A program made the translations under genes and the position numbers. DNA of 52,556 nucleotides from Candidatus Saccharimonadota bacterium (GTDB taxonomy: Bacteria; Patescibacteriota; Saccharimonadia; Saccharimonadales; SZUA-47), in contig JAGQNQ010000002.1 in the NCBI GenBank assembly GCA_020428015.1, forward strand, positions 1-52,556, written 5' to 3'. The notes under the pieces were generated by a model, which saw only the letters and a list, made by a program, of their open reading frames with translations, was not told where the DNA came from and made no database searches. Positions 4,476 through 49,516 of this stretch are shown piece by piece (within the stretch, counting starts at the first letter, position 1; each line of letters opens with the position of its first letter).

Positions 4476-5576
4476 ATGGATTCATCATTCTACACTGTAA
4501 AAACTTTCGTGAAGATTAACACTCGGCGCTTTTTCCGCGACCGCTTAGCTATATTTTTCACCGTTATATTCCCTCTTATTTTCTTATTCATCTTTGGGGC
4601 AATGAGCCGTGGTGGCGACCTATCGTTTAAGGTCGCACTAATTAATGAATCAACGAATCAGGCAGCATTCGACTACGTATCAGAAGTTAAGAACGACAAA
4701 CTTTTTAAAATTGACGAAAAAGTGACCACACTTGATCTCGCAAAACAGAAGATGAAACGTGGCGAAATAGATGCGGCGCTGGTAATTCCAAGCAACTTTG
4801 GTGAAGATGTGAACGGTGTCGCTTCGGGTGATTTGAATATCGTTTATTCCCCTAATAACGAAGTTGCTGCGCAAGCCCTTGTTTCTATTGAGACGGCACA
4901 CTTCCAGGGAAAGAACAAACAGCAGTCACAGACACCCGACCCATTCACGGTATCAGTGGAGGTGCTGAACGAACAAGCACTATCTCGGTTTGATTATACG
5001 TTTTCGGGCTTACTCGGCTTCTCTATCATTGGTCTTGGTATCTTTGGGCCGGTCAATGTGTTTCCAGAGCTAAAGAAGCAGGGAATTTTGCGTCGCCTGC
5101 ACACCACACCTCTAAAAGTGTGGCAGTATTTCGTTTCAAATGTGATTTCACAGGCAGTAATCGGGATTATTACCCTCAGCGTTTCGTTCCTGGTTGCCAT
5201 ATTTGTATTCGATTTGAAGGTCGTCGGTAACTGGTTCGAACTAGCAGCATTTATCGCCTTCAGTATCATTTCTATCTATGGCATTGGTCTTGCTATCGGT
5301 GGCTGGGCTAAGAACGAACGTCAGGCCGCACCGCTATCTAATATTGTCGTGTTTCCACTGATGTTCCTATCCGGCACATTCTTCCCTCGTTATGCAATGC
5401 CAGAGTGGCTGCAAAGCGTGTCAAACTATCTGCCGCTTACACCCGTTATTGATGGTATTCGACTTATTGCTGCCGAAGGTCAGCACTTGGTGGATCTAGG
5501 TCCGCAGCTGGGGTTGATTGCCGCATGGACGGTAGTAATTTATATCATAGCTTTCAAAGTATTTAGGTGGGAATAA
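4476..5576 (+). CDS. ABC-2 family transporter permease
   Basis: 366 aa with an N-terminal TM helix, a large extracytoplasmic loop and a C-terminal 5-TM bundle. It is adjacent to the ATPase gene. Confidence 0.8.
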   Translation: MDSSFYTVKTFVKINTRRFFRDRLAIFFTVIFPLIFLFIFGAMSRGGDLSFKVALINESTNQAAFDYVSEVKNDKLFKIDEKVTTLDLAKQKMKRGEIDAALVIPSNFGEDVNGVASGDLNIVYSPNNEVAAQALVSIETAHFQGKNKQQSQTPDPFTVSVEVLNEQALSRFDYTFSGLLGFSIIGLGIFGPVNVFPELKKQGILRRLHTTPLKVWQYFVSNVISQAVIGIITLSVSFLVAIFVFDLKVVGNWFELAAFIAFSIISIYGIGLAIGGWAKNERQAAPLSNIVVFPLMFLSGTFFPRYAMPEWLQSVSNYLPLTPVIDGIRLIAAEGQHLVDLGPQLGLIAAWTVVIYIIAFKVFRWE

Positions 5577-11582: not shown

Positions 11583-11658
11583 TGGTGGGGGTACCTGGAC
11601 TTGAACCAGGGACCAATCGGTTATGAGCCGACTGCTCTAACCACTGAGCTATACCCCC
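11583..11658 (-). tRNA. tRNA with CAU anticodon, probably tRNA-Ile2 (lysidine-dependent)
   Basis: Minus strand reads GGGGGTATAGCTCAGTGGTTAGAGCAGTCGGCTCATAACCGATTGGTCCCTGGTTCAAGTCCAGGTACCCCCACCA. It folds into a clean cloverleaf with an encoded CCA. From memory, the D-arm, variable region and T-arm closely resemble E. coli ileX, so the Ile2 versus Met assignment is tentative. Confidence 0.9.
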
Positions 11659-15892: not shown

Positions 15893-16185
15893 TTCGTCGC
15901 AATGAACTGCGCAGCGTCAAGTAGATCTTTCGCTACATTGGTTGCGTTCGGAGTCTCACTAGCCGTACCTGTTAGTACTTAGATCGTTTTGGTGCCCGCG
16001 TTGATTTGCTATCGCAGTCTAGAAAAATTGCTTTTATCACTTGAGTTAATGATAGTACTTTATTTTGCGGGCTTTCGCGCCCAGACCCACGCCATACTTT
16101 TGACTACAGTCTCAAAACCGGGGTTCCCCGCAAAACCTGTTTTGTGGGGTGGAGTGTTTGCAAAAAGTCCGCGGCCTGGGAATTA

Positions 16186-16210
16186 ACAAAATAGCCGGCG
16201 AACCGGCTAT
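16186..16210 (-). terminator. rho-independent terminator just after the tRNA-fMet-3'-like segment of unit 5
   Basis: Minus strand reads ATAGCCGG-TTCG-CCGGCTAT followed by TTTTGT. Confidence 0.6.
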
Positions 16211-16221
16211 AAATTCTATCT

Positions 16222-16312
16222 TGGTAGCGGGTCCGCCAGCTGGCGGAAGGACTCGTCTATAAATGTTCGCTCGGTAACGTGCGAAACGCACGCTCGCTCA
16301 GCCAAGCAAAGA
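16222..16312 (-). repeat. tRNA-fMet-3'-end-terminated repeat unit (copy disrupted by a 16-nt palindrome)
   Basis: Minus strand reads TCTTTGCTTGGCTGAGCGAGCGTGCGTTTCGCACGTTACCGAGCGAACATTTATAGACGAGTCCT[TCCGCCAGCTGGCGGA]CCCGCTACCA. It is about 90 percent identical to 16948-17025. Confidence 0.7.
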
Positions 16313-16321
16313 CTCCCGTCT

Positions 16322-16651
16322 TTATCTAACGACCGTGCGTAAAAGTCCAAGATTTCCAGCAAATGAAAAAGTTCTTCCGTCGTCTGTTACTATAGTGCTG
16401 CCCGGTTCAAGGTGTGTTAGAGAACAGCTGTCATCTATATATACTCCATCGCCAGAAACTACTTCATAACGATGTCTTCCGCCACGCCAAGTTTCACAAA
16501 AGCGCTCTGCGGTTAGCTGTGAATACCAGACAATTCCTTCACCGGTTTCGGGATCTCTTAACCAGCATTCCTCATCAAGATTCACTTGGGGCATATTTGA
16601 GTAAGGCATTCCCAAATCTAATTTTTTAGGTATAAGTCCTTCTCCTGCCAT
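16322..16651 (-). CDS. hypothetical 109-aa protein embedded in the tRNA-fMet repeat array
   Basis: The ORF has an AGAAAGAGAG RBS-like stretch and its own TTGTAC-18-TATAAT promoter. I recognise no family. Confidence 0.4.
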   Translation of the reverse strand: MAGEGLIPKKLDLGMPYSNMPQVNLDEECWLRDPETGEGIVWYSQLTAERFCETWRGGRHRYEVVSGDGVYIDDSCSLTHLEPGSTIVTDDGRTFSFAGNLGLLRTVVR

Positions 16652-16691
16652 GTCTACTCTCTTTCTGTTAGCGGCTAAACTCTATAAATTA

Positions 16692-16721
16692 ATTATATAA
16701 CAAATATATAAATGTGTACAA
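16692..16721 (-). promoter_or_regulatory. candidate promoter for the 109-aa ORF
   Basis: On the minus strand: TTGTAC (16716-16721), an 18-nt spacer, then TATAAT (16692-16697). Confidence 0.4.
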
Positions 16722-16733
16722 TATATATTTATA

Positions 16734-16782
16734 GGGTAGGACTCGCCCACATTCTGCGGGCCTGAAAGTAGCGGGGGTAGGA
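16734..16782 (-). repeat. two permuted fragments of the tRNA-fMet 3' end flanking a 22-nt hairpin module
   Basis: Minus strand reads TCCTACCCCCGCTAC-TTTCAGGCCCGCAGAATGTGGG-CGAGTCCTACCC. The same 22-nt module occurs next to the Met-tRNA 3' copy at 24404-24425. Confidence 0.6.
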
Positions 16783-16912
16783 ATATAACTTCGCTGCAGA
16801 GCAGCTTAGTATATAATCCGCCCATTTTACGCCTTCGGCTAGGGGGATTATCGTACCTTCGCTCTCCGCCAGCTGGCGGATCGCTATACGGTTCTCGCCC
16901 TGCGCCGATACA

Positions 16913-16941
16913 AGAAAAAACAGCCACGATGTGTGACTGTC
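16913..16941 (-). terminator. rho-independent terminator after repeat unit 2
   Basis: Minus strand reads ACAGTCAC-ACATC-GTGGCTGT followed by TTTTTT. Confidence 0.6.
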
Positions 16942-16947
16942 TTTTCT

Positions 16948-17087
16948 TGGTAGCGGGGGTAGGACTCGACTATGAATGTTCGCTCGGCAACATGCGTAAC
17001 GCATGCTCGCTCAGCCAAGCAAGGATTCCTCAATATGCCACTGGCATATTTCGCCTATCGGTTCTCGTCCAACACCGAAACATGAAA
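16948..17087 (-). repeat. tRNA-fMet-3'-end-terminated repeat unit 2
   Basis: Positions 16948-16969 are identical to the tRNA 3' end at 17118-17139 (tggtagcgggggtaggactcga). The body carries the GGCGAA-hairpin-TGAG-nnn-TCCTTGCTTGGCTGAGC module, which is also present at the tRNA-Lys locus. Confidence 0.7.
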
Positions 17088-17111
17088 AAGGCCCTACACA
17101 AGGTAGGGCTC
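17084..17111 (-). terminator. rho-independent terminator of tRNA-fMet
   Basis: Minus strand reads GCCCTAC-CTTGT-GTAGGGC followed by CTTTTTC. Confidence 0.7.
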
Positions 17112-17117
17112 TTTTCA

Positions 17118-17192
17118 TGGTAGCGGGGGTAGGACTCGAACCTACGACCTTGTGGTTATGAGCCACACGAGCTGCCTCTGCTCCACCCCGCG
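17118..17192 (-). tRNA. initiator tRNA-fMet (CAU)
   Basis: Minus strand reads CGCGGGGTGGAGCAGAGGCAGCTCGTGTGGCTCATAACCACAAGGTCGTAGGTTCGAGTCCTACCCCCGCTACCA. It has the 1:72 C-U mismatch and a CGCGGGG acceptor, as in bacterial initiators. CCA is encoded. Confidence 0.92.
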
Positions 17193-17342
17193 TCGTCGGC
17201 GTGTGATGGCGTTCTCGCCGCACCGCCGATGAAAACAAGTTTCCTCGGACGCTGCTTGCATTCTCGCCAAGCCGCCTCCTCTCATTTTTGCGAATCCCCT
17301 CGCAAAAATGTATGAGCTGCAAAGCTCTGAAGAGTGGTCATT

Positions 17343-17371
17343 ATCATACCAAACAGAGGTAGGAAAGTCAA
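17343..17371 (-). promoter_or_regulatory. sigma70-type promoter about 150 nt upstream of tRNA-fMet
   Basis: On the minus strand: TTGACT (17366-17371), a 17-nt spacer, then TATGAT (17343-17348). Confidence 0.5.
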
Positions 17372-23533: not shown

Positions 23534-23730
23534 CTGTGTATAGTTACTTTCCTCTTAATATCTTTGCAGATCGACCAGTTTAGCGAGGATGTGTAACGTT
23601 GATAGTTTCTCTGTGTACTCTTCACTCATTTATACTCTTGCAAGCTCTATTATCCCACAAAATGCAAAAATCAACTAATTTTTTCACGAATAAATAACAG
23701 AGGAGGATAAGCAGCACTATAAATATACTA

Positions 23731-24350: not shown

Positions 24351-24536
24351 TAAAAATCCCATCATGGGATGAGATTATTATTTTGGTAGCAGGACCGAGA
24401 TTTTCCCACATTCTGCGGGCCCGAAACTTCATCTTTGCAAACAAGTTTGCAAGAGAAGGTTTCCTTGCGAAAGTTCACTGAACTTTCTCACTCGTGACCC
24501 TATGCCGCGCTCAAATACCGAATACTAATATCAAAA
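24351..24536 (-). repeat. 186-nt unit: a 133-nt structured body plus a 53-nt perfect copy of the tRNA-Met 3' end and terminator
   Basis: Positions 24351-24403 are identical to 24537-24589. The body contains the hairpins GAAAGTTCA-G-TGAACTTTC, TTGCAAAC-TT-GTTTGCAA and CCCGCA-GAA-TGTGGG. Confidence 0.7.
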
Positions 24537-24569
24537 TAAAAATCCCATCATGGGATGAGATTATTATTT

Positions 24570-24646
24570 TGGTAGCAGGACCGAGATTTGAACTCGGGAC
24601 CTCAGGCTTATGAGTCCTGCGCTCTAACCAACTGAGCTATCCTGCC
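24570..24646 (-). tRNA. tRNA with CAU anticodon, probably elongator tRNA-Met
   Basis: Minus strand reads GGCAGGATAGCTCAGTTGGTTAGAGCGCAGGACTCATAAGCCTGAGGTCCCGAGTTCAAATCTCGGTCCTGCTACCA. From memory, the D-arm is identical to E. coli elongator Met, so the Met versus Ile2 call is tentative. Confidence 0.9.
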
Positions 24647-49221: not shown

Positions 49222-49298
49222 GGGACCATAGCTCAGCTGGTTAGAGCACCTGCCTTTTAAGCAGGGTGTCCTGGGTTCAAGTCCCAGTGGTCCCTCCA
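49222..49298 (+). tRNA. tRNA-Lys (UUU)
   Basis: GGGACCATAGCTCAGCTGGTTAGAGCACCTGCCTTTTAAGCAGGGTGTCCTGGGTTCAAGTCCCAGTGGTCCCTCCA. It folds into a clean cloverleaf with an encoded CCA. Confidence 0.95.
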
Positions 49299-49299
49299 A

Positions 49300-49482
49300 A
49301 GAATGGCCACCCTTCAGGGGTGGTTTTTCTTTGGATTGTCTCCTGAAACTTACCTAAAAGGGCACCTTGAGTGTCCTGCTGGCGAAGAAGTTCTGCGAAC
49401 TTCTGAGTTTTCCTTGCTTGGCCGAGCATATGCTTTAGCTTTTTGCGAGCAGAAAAGGCGCAAGTCCCAGTGGTCCCTCCAA
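49300..49482 (+). repeat. 183-nt non-coding unit ending in a 22-nt perfect copy of the tRNA-Lys 3' end
   Basis: Positions 49461-49482 equal 49278-49299. It contains a terminator (49305-49329) and the GGCGAA-hairpin-TGAG-nnn-TCCTTGCTTGGCCGAGC module (49381-49428) shared with the fMet array. Confidence 0.7.
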
Positions 49483-49485
49483 TAA

Positions 49486-49516
49486 AAAGTCCAACTCGGA
49501 AGTTGGATTTTTTTTA
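49486..49516. terminator. bidirectional rho-independent terminator (for the tRNA-Lys unit and nhaA)
   Basis: TCCAACT-CGGA-AGTTGGA (49490-49507) is flanked by an A-run and a T-run. Confidence 0.7.

Follow-up and report, generated by a model that had tools for sequence, protein, structure and literature searches.

The DNA analysed here, hereafter the window, is a stretch of 52,556 nucleotides (nt) from a Candidatus Saccharimonadota bacterium (assembly GCA_020428015.1, contig JAGQNQ010000002.1), in which non-coding units lie behind transfer RNA (tRNA) genes and end in copies of the adjacent tRNA's 3' end. ARAGORN and the Rfam tRNA model detected only four true tRNAs in the window, and the units scored neither as tRNA genes nor as pseudogenes. 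When the last 22 nt of each tRNA were searched against the whole window, units ending in the 3' end of their own tRNA were found at three of the four tRNA genes of the contig, namely tRNA-fMet, a second tRNA(CAT) at 24570-24646 and tRNA-Lys, the copies measuring 22, 20 and 21 nt, respectively. The same search revealed no 3'-end copy for tRNA-Met (11583-11658), the sole window tRNA without a unit. An earlier note, made from the sequence alone, had described a tandem array at tRNA-fMet and had suggested a search for further tRNA 3'-end duplications; the array was confirmed, but the units at tRNA(CAT) and tRNA-Lys demonstrate that it is not specific to fMet. A scan of 28 window open reading frames (ORFs) showed genes of the kind usual on a chromosome, coding for transporters, DnaK/DnaJ, FtsH, LepA, MurJ, a TilS-like PP-loop protein, a Dus enzyme, NhaA and a two-component system, and no match to a recombinase or integrase family was obtained among them, in agreement with the earlier note, which had seen no integrase. 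For two window proteins, a look-up of the exact sequence gave no match.

The tRNA-fMet array is read on the minus strand throughout, and its promoter, leader hairpin, tRNA, first tail copy and terminators were all found as had been predicted. A sigma-70-type promoter, TTGACT-17-TATGAT with an extended -10 element (17343-17371; 10/12 matches), is predicted to drive the tRNA-fMet unit. The leader that follows (17193-17342) contains a 10-bp hairpin (ATTTTTGCGA/TCGCAAAAAT, 17284-17309) and two copies of the motif GGCGAGAA (17258-17268 and 17208-17235), of which the second has homologues at the beginnings of units 2 and 3. The tRNA(CAT) at 17118-17192, detected by ARAGORN and by Rfam (tRNA, 60.6 bits), is of the initiator type, its sequence carrying the C1xU72 mismatch and the A11-U24 pair as initiator marks. 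Immediately 3' of its CCA lies an inverted repeat that forms a terminator-like hairpin with a T-run (hairpin 1, 17084-17116), and a second one (hairpin 2, 16914-16946) has homologous flanks and a wholly different stem sequence, in which the pairing is nevertheless retained. Between the two lies unit 2 (16948-17080), which belongs to a module type that we call A and resembles RtT, the Rfam family RF00391 of the Escherichia coli tyrT operon. It is composed of a 5' closing strand with the motif GGACGAGAAC (17059-17080), a hairpin H1 (17033-17049), a long distal stem (16974-17028) and the tail TCGAGTCCTACCCCCGCTACCA (16948-16969), a perfect 22-nt copy of the tRNA-fMet 3' end, a match that chance alone would produce ~1e-8 times in 2 x 52.5 kb. 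The minimum-energy fold of unit 2 has a z of -2.4.

The start motif TTTTCWTG..GRCGAGAACS, by which the earlier note had recognised the leader, unit 2 and unit 3 as homologous, does open all three (17208-17235, 17059-17080 and 16889-16910, respectively), with an identity of 81% over 31 nt between unit 2 and unit 3. Unit 3a (16768-16910) is of type D, folds with a z of -3.25 and is 95% identical to the corresponding sequence of the related contig L033. Its start motif at 16889-16910 is followed by an H1 formed by the palindrome TCCGCCAGCTGGCGGA (16865-16880), the type D stem AATCCCCC..GGGCGGATT (16815-16849) and a truncated tail, TCCTACCCCCGCTAC (16768-16782). Next comes unit 3b (16734-16763), a remnant of a type B unit that consists of the hairpin H3 (AGGCCCGCAGAATGTGGG, 16746-16763) and the tail fragment CGAGTCCTACCC (16734-16745); L033 retains ~78 nt more of this unit, which were lost from the window. 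What had been taken for two permuted tRNA fragments within one unit are the truncated tails of two successive units, the second of which has a fuller copy in L033, and unit 3 lacks the terminator that had been assigned to every unit. The earlier description as a graveyard of att sites applies only to the unit 3 region, where the tails are truncated and an internal stretch that L033 retains is deleted.

Unit 5 (16222-16312), which L033 shares, represents the distal half of a type A unit, contains direct repeats and has a fold z of -2.0. Over 75 nt it is 87% identical to unit 2, from which it differs by a compensated A-U to G-C change in the hairpin GCRUGCG/CGCAYGU. Its distal stem (16261-16312) is followed by the expected tRNA-like tail and a terminator-like hairpin (16188-16210), but the tail is split by a 16-nt palindrome identical to the H1 of unit 3, giving the order ACGAGTCCT (16248-16256), TCCGCCAGCTGGCGGA (16232-16247) and CCCGCTACCA (16222-16231). 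The interval between units 3b and 5 holds the predicted promoter-like site (16692-16720) and 109-aa ORF (16322-16651), both on the minus strand. This ORF is an orphan with no Pfam match; its only homologues are a sequence in contig L001 (94% identity) and another copy in L033, the substitutions are six nonsynonymous to zero synonymous and 13 to 4, and the AlphaFold2 model has a mean pLDDT of 37. Its coding status is therefore doubtful, and it provides no clue such as a nuclease fold. Past the terminator of unit 5, ~290 nt more of non-coding DNA (15900-16187) contain several G+C-rich hairpins, with no annotation and no Rfam match in that interval.

The two other loci repeat this plan behind different tRNAs. 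The tRNA(CAT) locus (24351-24646, minus strand) begins with a tRNA that is probably Ile2 and is adjoined by a gene with a PP-loop domain, as in TilS. The terminator of the tRNA (24537-24569) recurs as an identical copy after the unit (24351-24383), and the type B unit between them comprises a copy of the variable loop and T-stem 5' strand (24490-24500), the hairpins H1 (24469-24487), H2 (24423-24464) and H3 (24404-24422), and a tail (24384-24403) located 186 nt downstream of the tRNA. At the tRNA-Lys(TTT) locus (49222-49515, plus strand; tRNA at 49222-49298), the terminator of the tRNA (49303-49329) differs from the one after the unit (49484-49515), and the type A unit consists of a T-stem 5' copy (49371-49382), H1 (49387-49403), a distal domain (49412-49458) and a tail (49461-49481) 183 nt downstream of the tRNA. 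Units behind different window tRNAs have the motif TCCTTGCTTGGCYGAGC and the H3 hairpin GGCCCGCAGAATGTGGG in common. By module, unit 2, unit 5 and the Lys unit are of type A, the CAT unit and unit 3b of type B and unit 3a of type D, and of the tRNA itself they keep the variable loop, the T-stem and the 3' strand only, without a full cloverleaf. The H1 stem of the Lys unit (GAAGTTC/GAACTTC) is the same as that of the CAT unit, which suggests an exchange between units or a genome-specific partner.

Comparison with related contigs revealed that the arrays vary unit by unit. L033 (Saccharibacteria HKST-UBA54) has a tRNA-fMet identical to that of the window, and directly behind it stand hairpin 2 and unit 3 of the window. 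The 170-nt unit 2 is therefore absent from L033 with the junction inside the 22-nt core, which is the kind of presence/absence that the earlier note had proposed to look for; L033 appears as an empty-site-like allele in this comparison, but a deletion between the 22-nt repeats would give the same outcome. The usual flank 3' of tRNA-fMet in the lineage, AGTAAGA..CAGATAGAGAT.., follows the tRNA directly in L225 and the last tail in L121, L033 and L001, while past the ...CTACCAAG of unit 5 the window is wholly divergent from L001 and L033. The att sites of tRNA-targeting tyrosine integrases are direct repeats of the 3' part of the tRNA that begin in the T-loop or in the anticodon loop. The window units might on these grounds be miniature non-autonomous integrative cassettes or their remains, in which an integrase encoded elsewhere crosses over in the T-loop, and each arrival replaces the 3' end and shifts the native tail and terminator downstream, so that an array would build up. 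The extent of the repeat, from C56 in the T-loop to CCA, the displaced native flank and the loss of unit 2 within the core all speak for this explanation, and so does the presence of cargo: in L225 (1922-4300), tRNA-fMet and its usual terminator are followed by three small ORFs (by eye a P-loop kinase, a GNAT acetyltransferase and a cytidine/dCMP deaminase-like protein), a pseudo-tail, a type B unit and a perfect tail, an arrangement that, judged from its sequence, resembles a small cargo-bearing array, and an ORF also lies inside the window array. Yet an integrase is missing from the L225 cargo genes as it is from the 28 scanned ORFs of the window.

The regions around the units differ between relatives as well. 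Upstream of tRNA-fMet, the 26-nt promoter core is 92% conserved in L033 despite a different leader; promoter and tRNA are common to the window, L033 and L121, whereas the ~150-nt leader of the window is unrelated to that of the other two, which share another conserved leader that may itself be structured. In L069, the first 30 nt of tRNA-fMet (5419-5493) together with 21 nt of upstream flank are duplicated ~150 nt upstream of the gene, a 5'-side duplication that mirrors the 3'-end copies at the window tRNAs. The relative represented by L265 and L266 (GCA_020428065.1) has retained both the Lys and the CAT unit. Over the CAT unit, 132 nt are identical between the window and L266, but H1 has been swapped with full compensation, from AAGTTC-AGT-GAACTT (window 24469-24487) to ATGCC-GGT-GGCAT (L266 1-13). 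Near this unit, a TerC-family gene is present in L266 (803-1804) and missing from the window (23683-23714), an indel of ~1 kb, and ~850 nt of non-coding DNA separate the CAT unit from an RRM-protein gene in the window. Relatives in which the FMN reductase gene adjoining the locus is 80% identical have no tRNA at that locus.

To look beyond these relatives, metagenome contigs were scanned for the H3 17-mer GGCCCGCAGAATGTGGG, which gave at least 120 matches. Among the matches listed, ~45 have a tRNA on the same strand within 400 nt upstream of H3, and in every case H3 is followed by sequence that agrees with the final 21 nt of the upstream tRNA (C56 to CCA), mostly at 21/21 positions; the tail starts at C56 in nearly all units. 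These loci cover twelve anticodons of eight tRNA types, namely Ser, Trp, Met/CAT, Glu, Lys (two), Leu (three), Ile and Pro (two). The units also copy the variable loop, T-stem 5' strand and U54 of the same tRNA ~85 nt upstream of the tail, so that a unit amounts to the 3' third of a tRNA whose T-loop holds a module where U55 would stand. They are always found on the tRNA strand, and their length is uniform (~140-190 nt) over dozens of loci. A GC-rich subset, termed class 2, adjoins tRNA-Ser and tRNA-Glu and forms tandem arrays with repeated terminators; from the form of its tRNAs we infer that it is proteobacterial. In L166, both T-stem strands of the unit deviate from those of the tRNA (GCGGG/CCCGC versus GTGGG/CCCAC). 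Other modules occupy the same site elsewhere, type D in window unit 3a, L170 and L239 and type C in L059, L035, L069 and L211. Genome contigs scanned with TCGAGTCCNNNCCCCGCTACCA, an over-general pattern, gave at least 120 matches, mostly from other phyla, and among those listed ~12 loci belong to Saccharibacteria and related small-genome bacteria (Candidate Phyla Radiation, CPR). A large, well-structured and unannotated RNA family that is tied to tRNA genes is exposed by these data.

These wider results bear on the integrative cassettes in opposite ways. One integrase would have to serve twelve anticodons of eight tRNA types, and remnants of random deletions would vary more in size than units of ~140-190 nt do. 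Two scans of viral contigs, one with the H3 17-mer and one with the type A motif, returned unrelated coding sequence only, so that no phage-borne copy was seen. A certain parallel exists in Bacteroidota (L115 3543-4500, L044 1909-2600, L040 275-730), where 98-nt repeats behind tRNA-fMet are partial tRNA copies, the anticodon-stem 3' strand and the variable loop having given way to a TCCGCC-NNNN-GGCGGA hairpin. L044 and L040 have, between the tRNA and the partial copy, a small ORF that is GIY-YIG-like by eye, as would suit an integrative element. The palindrome of these repeats also occurs in window units 3 and 5.

Two further groups of matches were noted. The exact H3 17-mer GGCCCGCAGAATGTGGG is also found, with no tRNA near, at L190, L192, L236 and eight metagenome loci like them, where it caps a long hairpin just upstream of an ORF whose N-terminal sequence is, by eye, that of an IS256-like transposase. 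In the GC-rich loci L159 (787-937) and L253 (1-109), the Rfam family sX4, a proteobacterial small RNA, scored 48-49 bits, below its threshold, over tRNA-Ser and its terminator; the sX4 seed may overlap a tRNA.

Very strong covariation, in support of a structured RNA, was seen in an alignment of 24 type B units. The common fold is a four-way junction built from a T-stem of 5 bp, an H1 of 8 bp, a composite H2 with a CUUG loop and an H3 of 7 bp that includes C56 and has a GAA loop. As much as 97.4% of the alignment cells are paired, and 26 of the 32 pairs have changed on both sides, values that were not attained in any of 500 shuffles. Slid controls were paired at 27-46%, and RNAalifold arrived independently at the same fold. 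H3 was the search query and is hence invariant, so no weight is given to its conservation; T-stem, H1 and H2 were not selected in this way. Outside H3, 27 G.U/U.G pairs stand against seven A.C/C.A pairs, and H3 itself has an invariant G.U, which argues that it is the tRNA-sense strand that is under selection. Neither compensatory changes nor a G.U bias would be expected of double-stranded arms bound by a protein, and together with the missing integrase, the uniform size and the missing viral copies they leave the integrative cassettes unlikely, though not negligible, despite the start of the repeats at C56 and the absence of unit 2 at the core.

A covariance model, R1, was built from the type B units alone, and its E-values are rough. 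It assigned 126 bits to the window CAT unit, 28 bits to unit 2 (E ~2e-7) and 18 bits to the Lys unit (E ~5e-4), matched unit 3 at 16725-16848 with 26 bits and also recognised the GC-rich class. With the filters off, R1 found in the whole window only the four tRNA-linked units and nothing away from a tRNA at E < 0.5. A tRNA-like gene on the opposite strand was considered and rejected, for on that strand the G.U pairs, with the invariant one of H3 among them, would turn into A.C mismatches. Likewise discarded were known ribozymes, TnpB/Cas12-type guide RNAs, integron attC sites and split tRNAs, as no Rfam hit and no associated protein were found and the tail duplicates neighbouring sequence and not a distant target.

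The different parts of the tRNA copy are unequally preserved. In the 16 units with an intact tail, mismatches to the tRNA amount to 4/336 in the tail and 28/192 in the T-stem 5' copy, so that the tail, being ~12 times better conserved, is either homogenised with the tRNA or constrained in its sequence. This difference is among the reasons why neutral relics of old tandem tRNA gene duplications are hardly credible as an explanation. The unit does hold a tRNA 3' third, and decay is visible in the unit 3 region, as one would expect of relics, but homologous modules at twelve anticodons of eight tRNA types, strong covariation and the conservation of the tail contradict them. A mere old local duplication at tRNA-fMet, the outcome that the earlier note had set against its own hypothesis, is excluded because relatives vary by unit and other tRNAs carry copies.

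Behind the terminator, some units carry in addition the tRNA 3' third in inverted orientation. The inverted copy is strong in five of the 24 type B units (L186, L217, L161, L260 and L261; z of -3 to -5) and weak or absent in the remaining ones, with a mean z of -1.1. In these five units, and also in class 2 units (TGGGCGGAGAAA...GGGGGATTCGAA), it is strongly complementary to the tail. Such complementarity raises the thought of selfish palindromic repeats of the REPIN or MITE kind, with the inverted and the direct copy of the tRNA 3' third as arms, whose spread would proceed through DNA hairpins or through template switching at the terminator palindrome and whose structure would be selected for propagation only. 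The tandem arrays with identical terminators in L213 and L156 and the H3 hairpin at the end of an IS256-like element would suit this, as would the tie between RtT-like sequences and BIME repeats (PMC2965389). Against it, the filter-free model search of the window found copies linked to tRNAs only and not dispersed, their orientation to the tRNA is always the same, and no transposase or RAYT-type gene was seen with them. The inverted arm has moreover decayed in most units, whereas module and tail are conserved. We consider this origin unlikely, yet worth some weight.

The reading that we favour, with a probability of roughly 50%, is that the units are RNA-level trailer elements of the tRNA operon that resemble RtT, acquire a tRNA-type 3' end from T-stem and CCA tail and belong to arrays which would be reshaped by recombination at the repeated tails. 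It starts from what is observed: the position and strand of the units, the tail rule, the covarying structure and the strain polymorphism. The T-stem 5' copy of the unit pairs with the T-stem 3' strand of the tail and closes the multi-helix module at the U55 site, while the acceptor 3' strand and NCCA of the tail remain unpaired and are followed by a hairpin with a T-run. The units would be produced by read-through from the tRNA promoter. By virtue of T-stem and CCA tail, they would become substrates that the tRNA 3'-end machinery cuts, trims and protects, which has been reported for rtT RNA, and the module would be the working part that binds a putative partner and acts in trans. Recombination between the repeated tails and terminators could make the arrays grow, shrink and shuffle, which would account for the absence of unit 2 from L033, for a flank that changes exactly at the tail and for the lasting identity of the tail with the tRNA. 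Among the three possibilities left by the earlier note (att-site graveyard, integrative cassettes and expressed tRNA-tailed small RNAs), the last one appears to fit best, given the compensatory fold, the G.U strand bias, the location of the units on the tRNA strand and the hairpin with T-run.

It is also conceivable that the units are solely cis-acting parts of the tRNA operon, that is, platforms for termination, attenuation or processing which tune the tRNA output without releasing a stand-alone RNA. In Rfam, RtT is filed among the cis-regulatory elements, every tail has a hairpin with a T-run behind it, the inverted copy could pair with the tRNA 3' third in read-through transcripts, and the leader of tRNA-fMet shares the start motif of the units. 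On the other hand, a four-way junction with ~30 conserved pairs and alternative modules exceeds the needs of a terminator, tRNA-Met at 11583-11658 manages with no unit, and a unit has been lost in close relatives with no visible compensation. A purely cis-acting role therefore seems quite unlikely to us.

Several observations weigh against trailer RNAs of the RtT kind. Rfam searched at permissive thresholds returned only tRNA and a weak RtT match; this match aligns unit 2 over the full length of the model, but its 16.0 bits are far below the gathering score of 45, and the RtT model gave no hit to the Lys unit, to type B units or to class 2 loci. Since a terminator-like hairpin precedes each tail, read-through must be assumed, and the promoter search of the window found no promoter-like site before the units themselves. 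The tail of the Lys unit in L265 ends in TCA in place of CCA. The cargo genes between tRNA and tail in L225 and the ORF inside the window array hint at insertion events. The G.U asymmetry would fit single-stranded DNA of the tRNA-sense strand equally well. Furthermore, trailer RNAs do not explain the inverted copy of the tRNA 3' third, strong in some units and decayed in others, nor do they account for the arrival of the module in a copy of each new tRNA's T-loop or for the wholesale swaps of H1 and terminator stems.

A bolder proposal, which we regard as possible but doubtful, is that of a large, possibly cross-phylum RNA family scaffolded on the T-stem and 3' tail of the neighbouring tRNA. 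It would carry interchangeable T-loop modules (types A to D), would be mobile without an integrase by copying the local tRNA 3' third first inverted and then direct, and would include E. coli RtT as one diverged branch. The data suggest that RNAs linked to tRNA genes and designed like RtT are far more numerous than RtT itself, in Saccharibacteria and in other bacteria. Neither the well-supported four-way junction, with its closing helix copied from the tRNA T-stem, nor the tail formed by the last 21 nt of the adjacent tRNA is in Rfam 15, and a literature search for tRNA-tailed units in Saccharibacteria retrieved no description. What binds the invariant GGCCCGCAGAAUGUGGG hairpin, whether the CCA tail confers tRNA-type processing or protection and how the module gains the sequence of each tRNA have become testable questions. 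For the calling of genomic islands, it follows that repeats of tRNA 3' ends are not automatically att sites of integrases.

Compared with known systems, the units share with att sites the start of the repeat in the T-loop, the tandem accretion at one tRNA, the presence or absence between strains and the occasional cargo. They differ by the lack of an integrase among the scanned window ORFs and the L225 cargo, by a unit size of 140-190 nt, by a structure conserved at the RNA level and by one module family that serves many tRNAs. REP, BIME and REPIN sequences are similar in being imperfect palindromes at gene 3' ends with terminator-like behaviour, and a link to rtT has been described for them (PMC2965389), whereas the units were found only behind tRNA genes, have arms that are copies of tRNA sequence and come with no RAYT-type gene that was seen. 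Engineered tRNA scaffolds, viral tRNA-like structures, transfer-messenger RNA (tmRNA) and Y RNA (YrlA) likewise have a foreign RNA module set in parts of a tRNA, the bacterial Y RNA/YrlA being a case with a natural tRNA-like 3' end (PMC4201824). By analogy, the tRNA parts could provide the embedded module with tRNA-type processing and stability. In contrast to these scaffolds, the units have of the tRNA no more than T-stem and 3' acceptor strand, type B units being devoid of the acceptor 5' strand, and they place the module in the T-loop and copy their tRNA parts from the neighbouring gene.

The closest known system, which the earlier note did not name, is RtT, known since the 1970s-1990s. The tyrT-tyrV-rttR region of E. 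coli K-12, which served as a control, contains four tandem RtT units that scored 133-137 bits. There, a 5' strand GGGGAAGG that pairs with the tail is followed by AUGAGAAGC, an insert and the tail AATCCTTCCCCCACCACCA, a 19-nt copy of the tRNA-Tyr 3' end. RtT RNA is described as set free when tRNA operon transcripts are processed and as linked to the stringent response, and members near Asn and Lys tRNA genes have been reported in Actinobacillus/Pasteurellaceae (PMC4986893; bioRxiv 10.1101/2024.07.17.603846); how it acts is given as unknown in a recent account (bioRxiv 10.1101/2024.07.17.603846). The systems differ in that terminator-like hairpins separate the window units and not those of E. 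coli, in the modules, which are of types A to D here, and in the host, a Saccharibacterium. In addition, the closing strand of type B units is a direct copy of the T-stem 5' strand, for which reason the type B module sits inside the T-loop, and the R1 model gave no hit to E. coli RtT. By the test of Rfam the window units are not members of RtT, but they share its plan and would work like it. Behind the closing strand of RtT stands the motif GGAUGAGAAC, which corresponds to GGACGAGAAC and GGGCGAGAAC in the window and to the GRCGAGAACS motif that the earlier note had recorded; in the form GGAYGAGAAC it is found in unit 2, unit 3 and the leader and was not seen in the type B CAT unit. The closing 5' strand itself pairs with the T-stem 3'/acceptor part of the tail both in E. 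coli (GGGGAAGG) and in unit 2. As in E. coli, where the repeats are 178 bp long and lie in tandem between and after the tRNA genes, the units of the window lie behind tRNA genes on the same strand, and those with an intact tail end in the 3' end of the adjacent tRNA including CCA.

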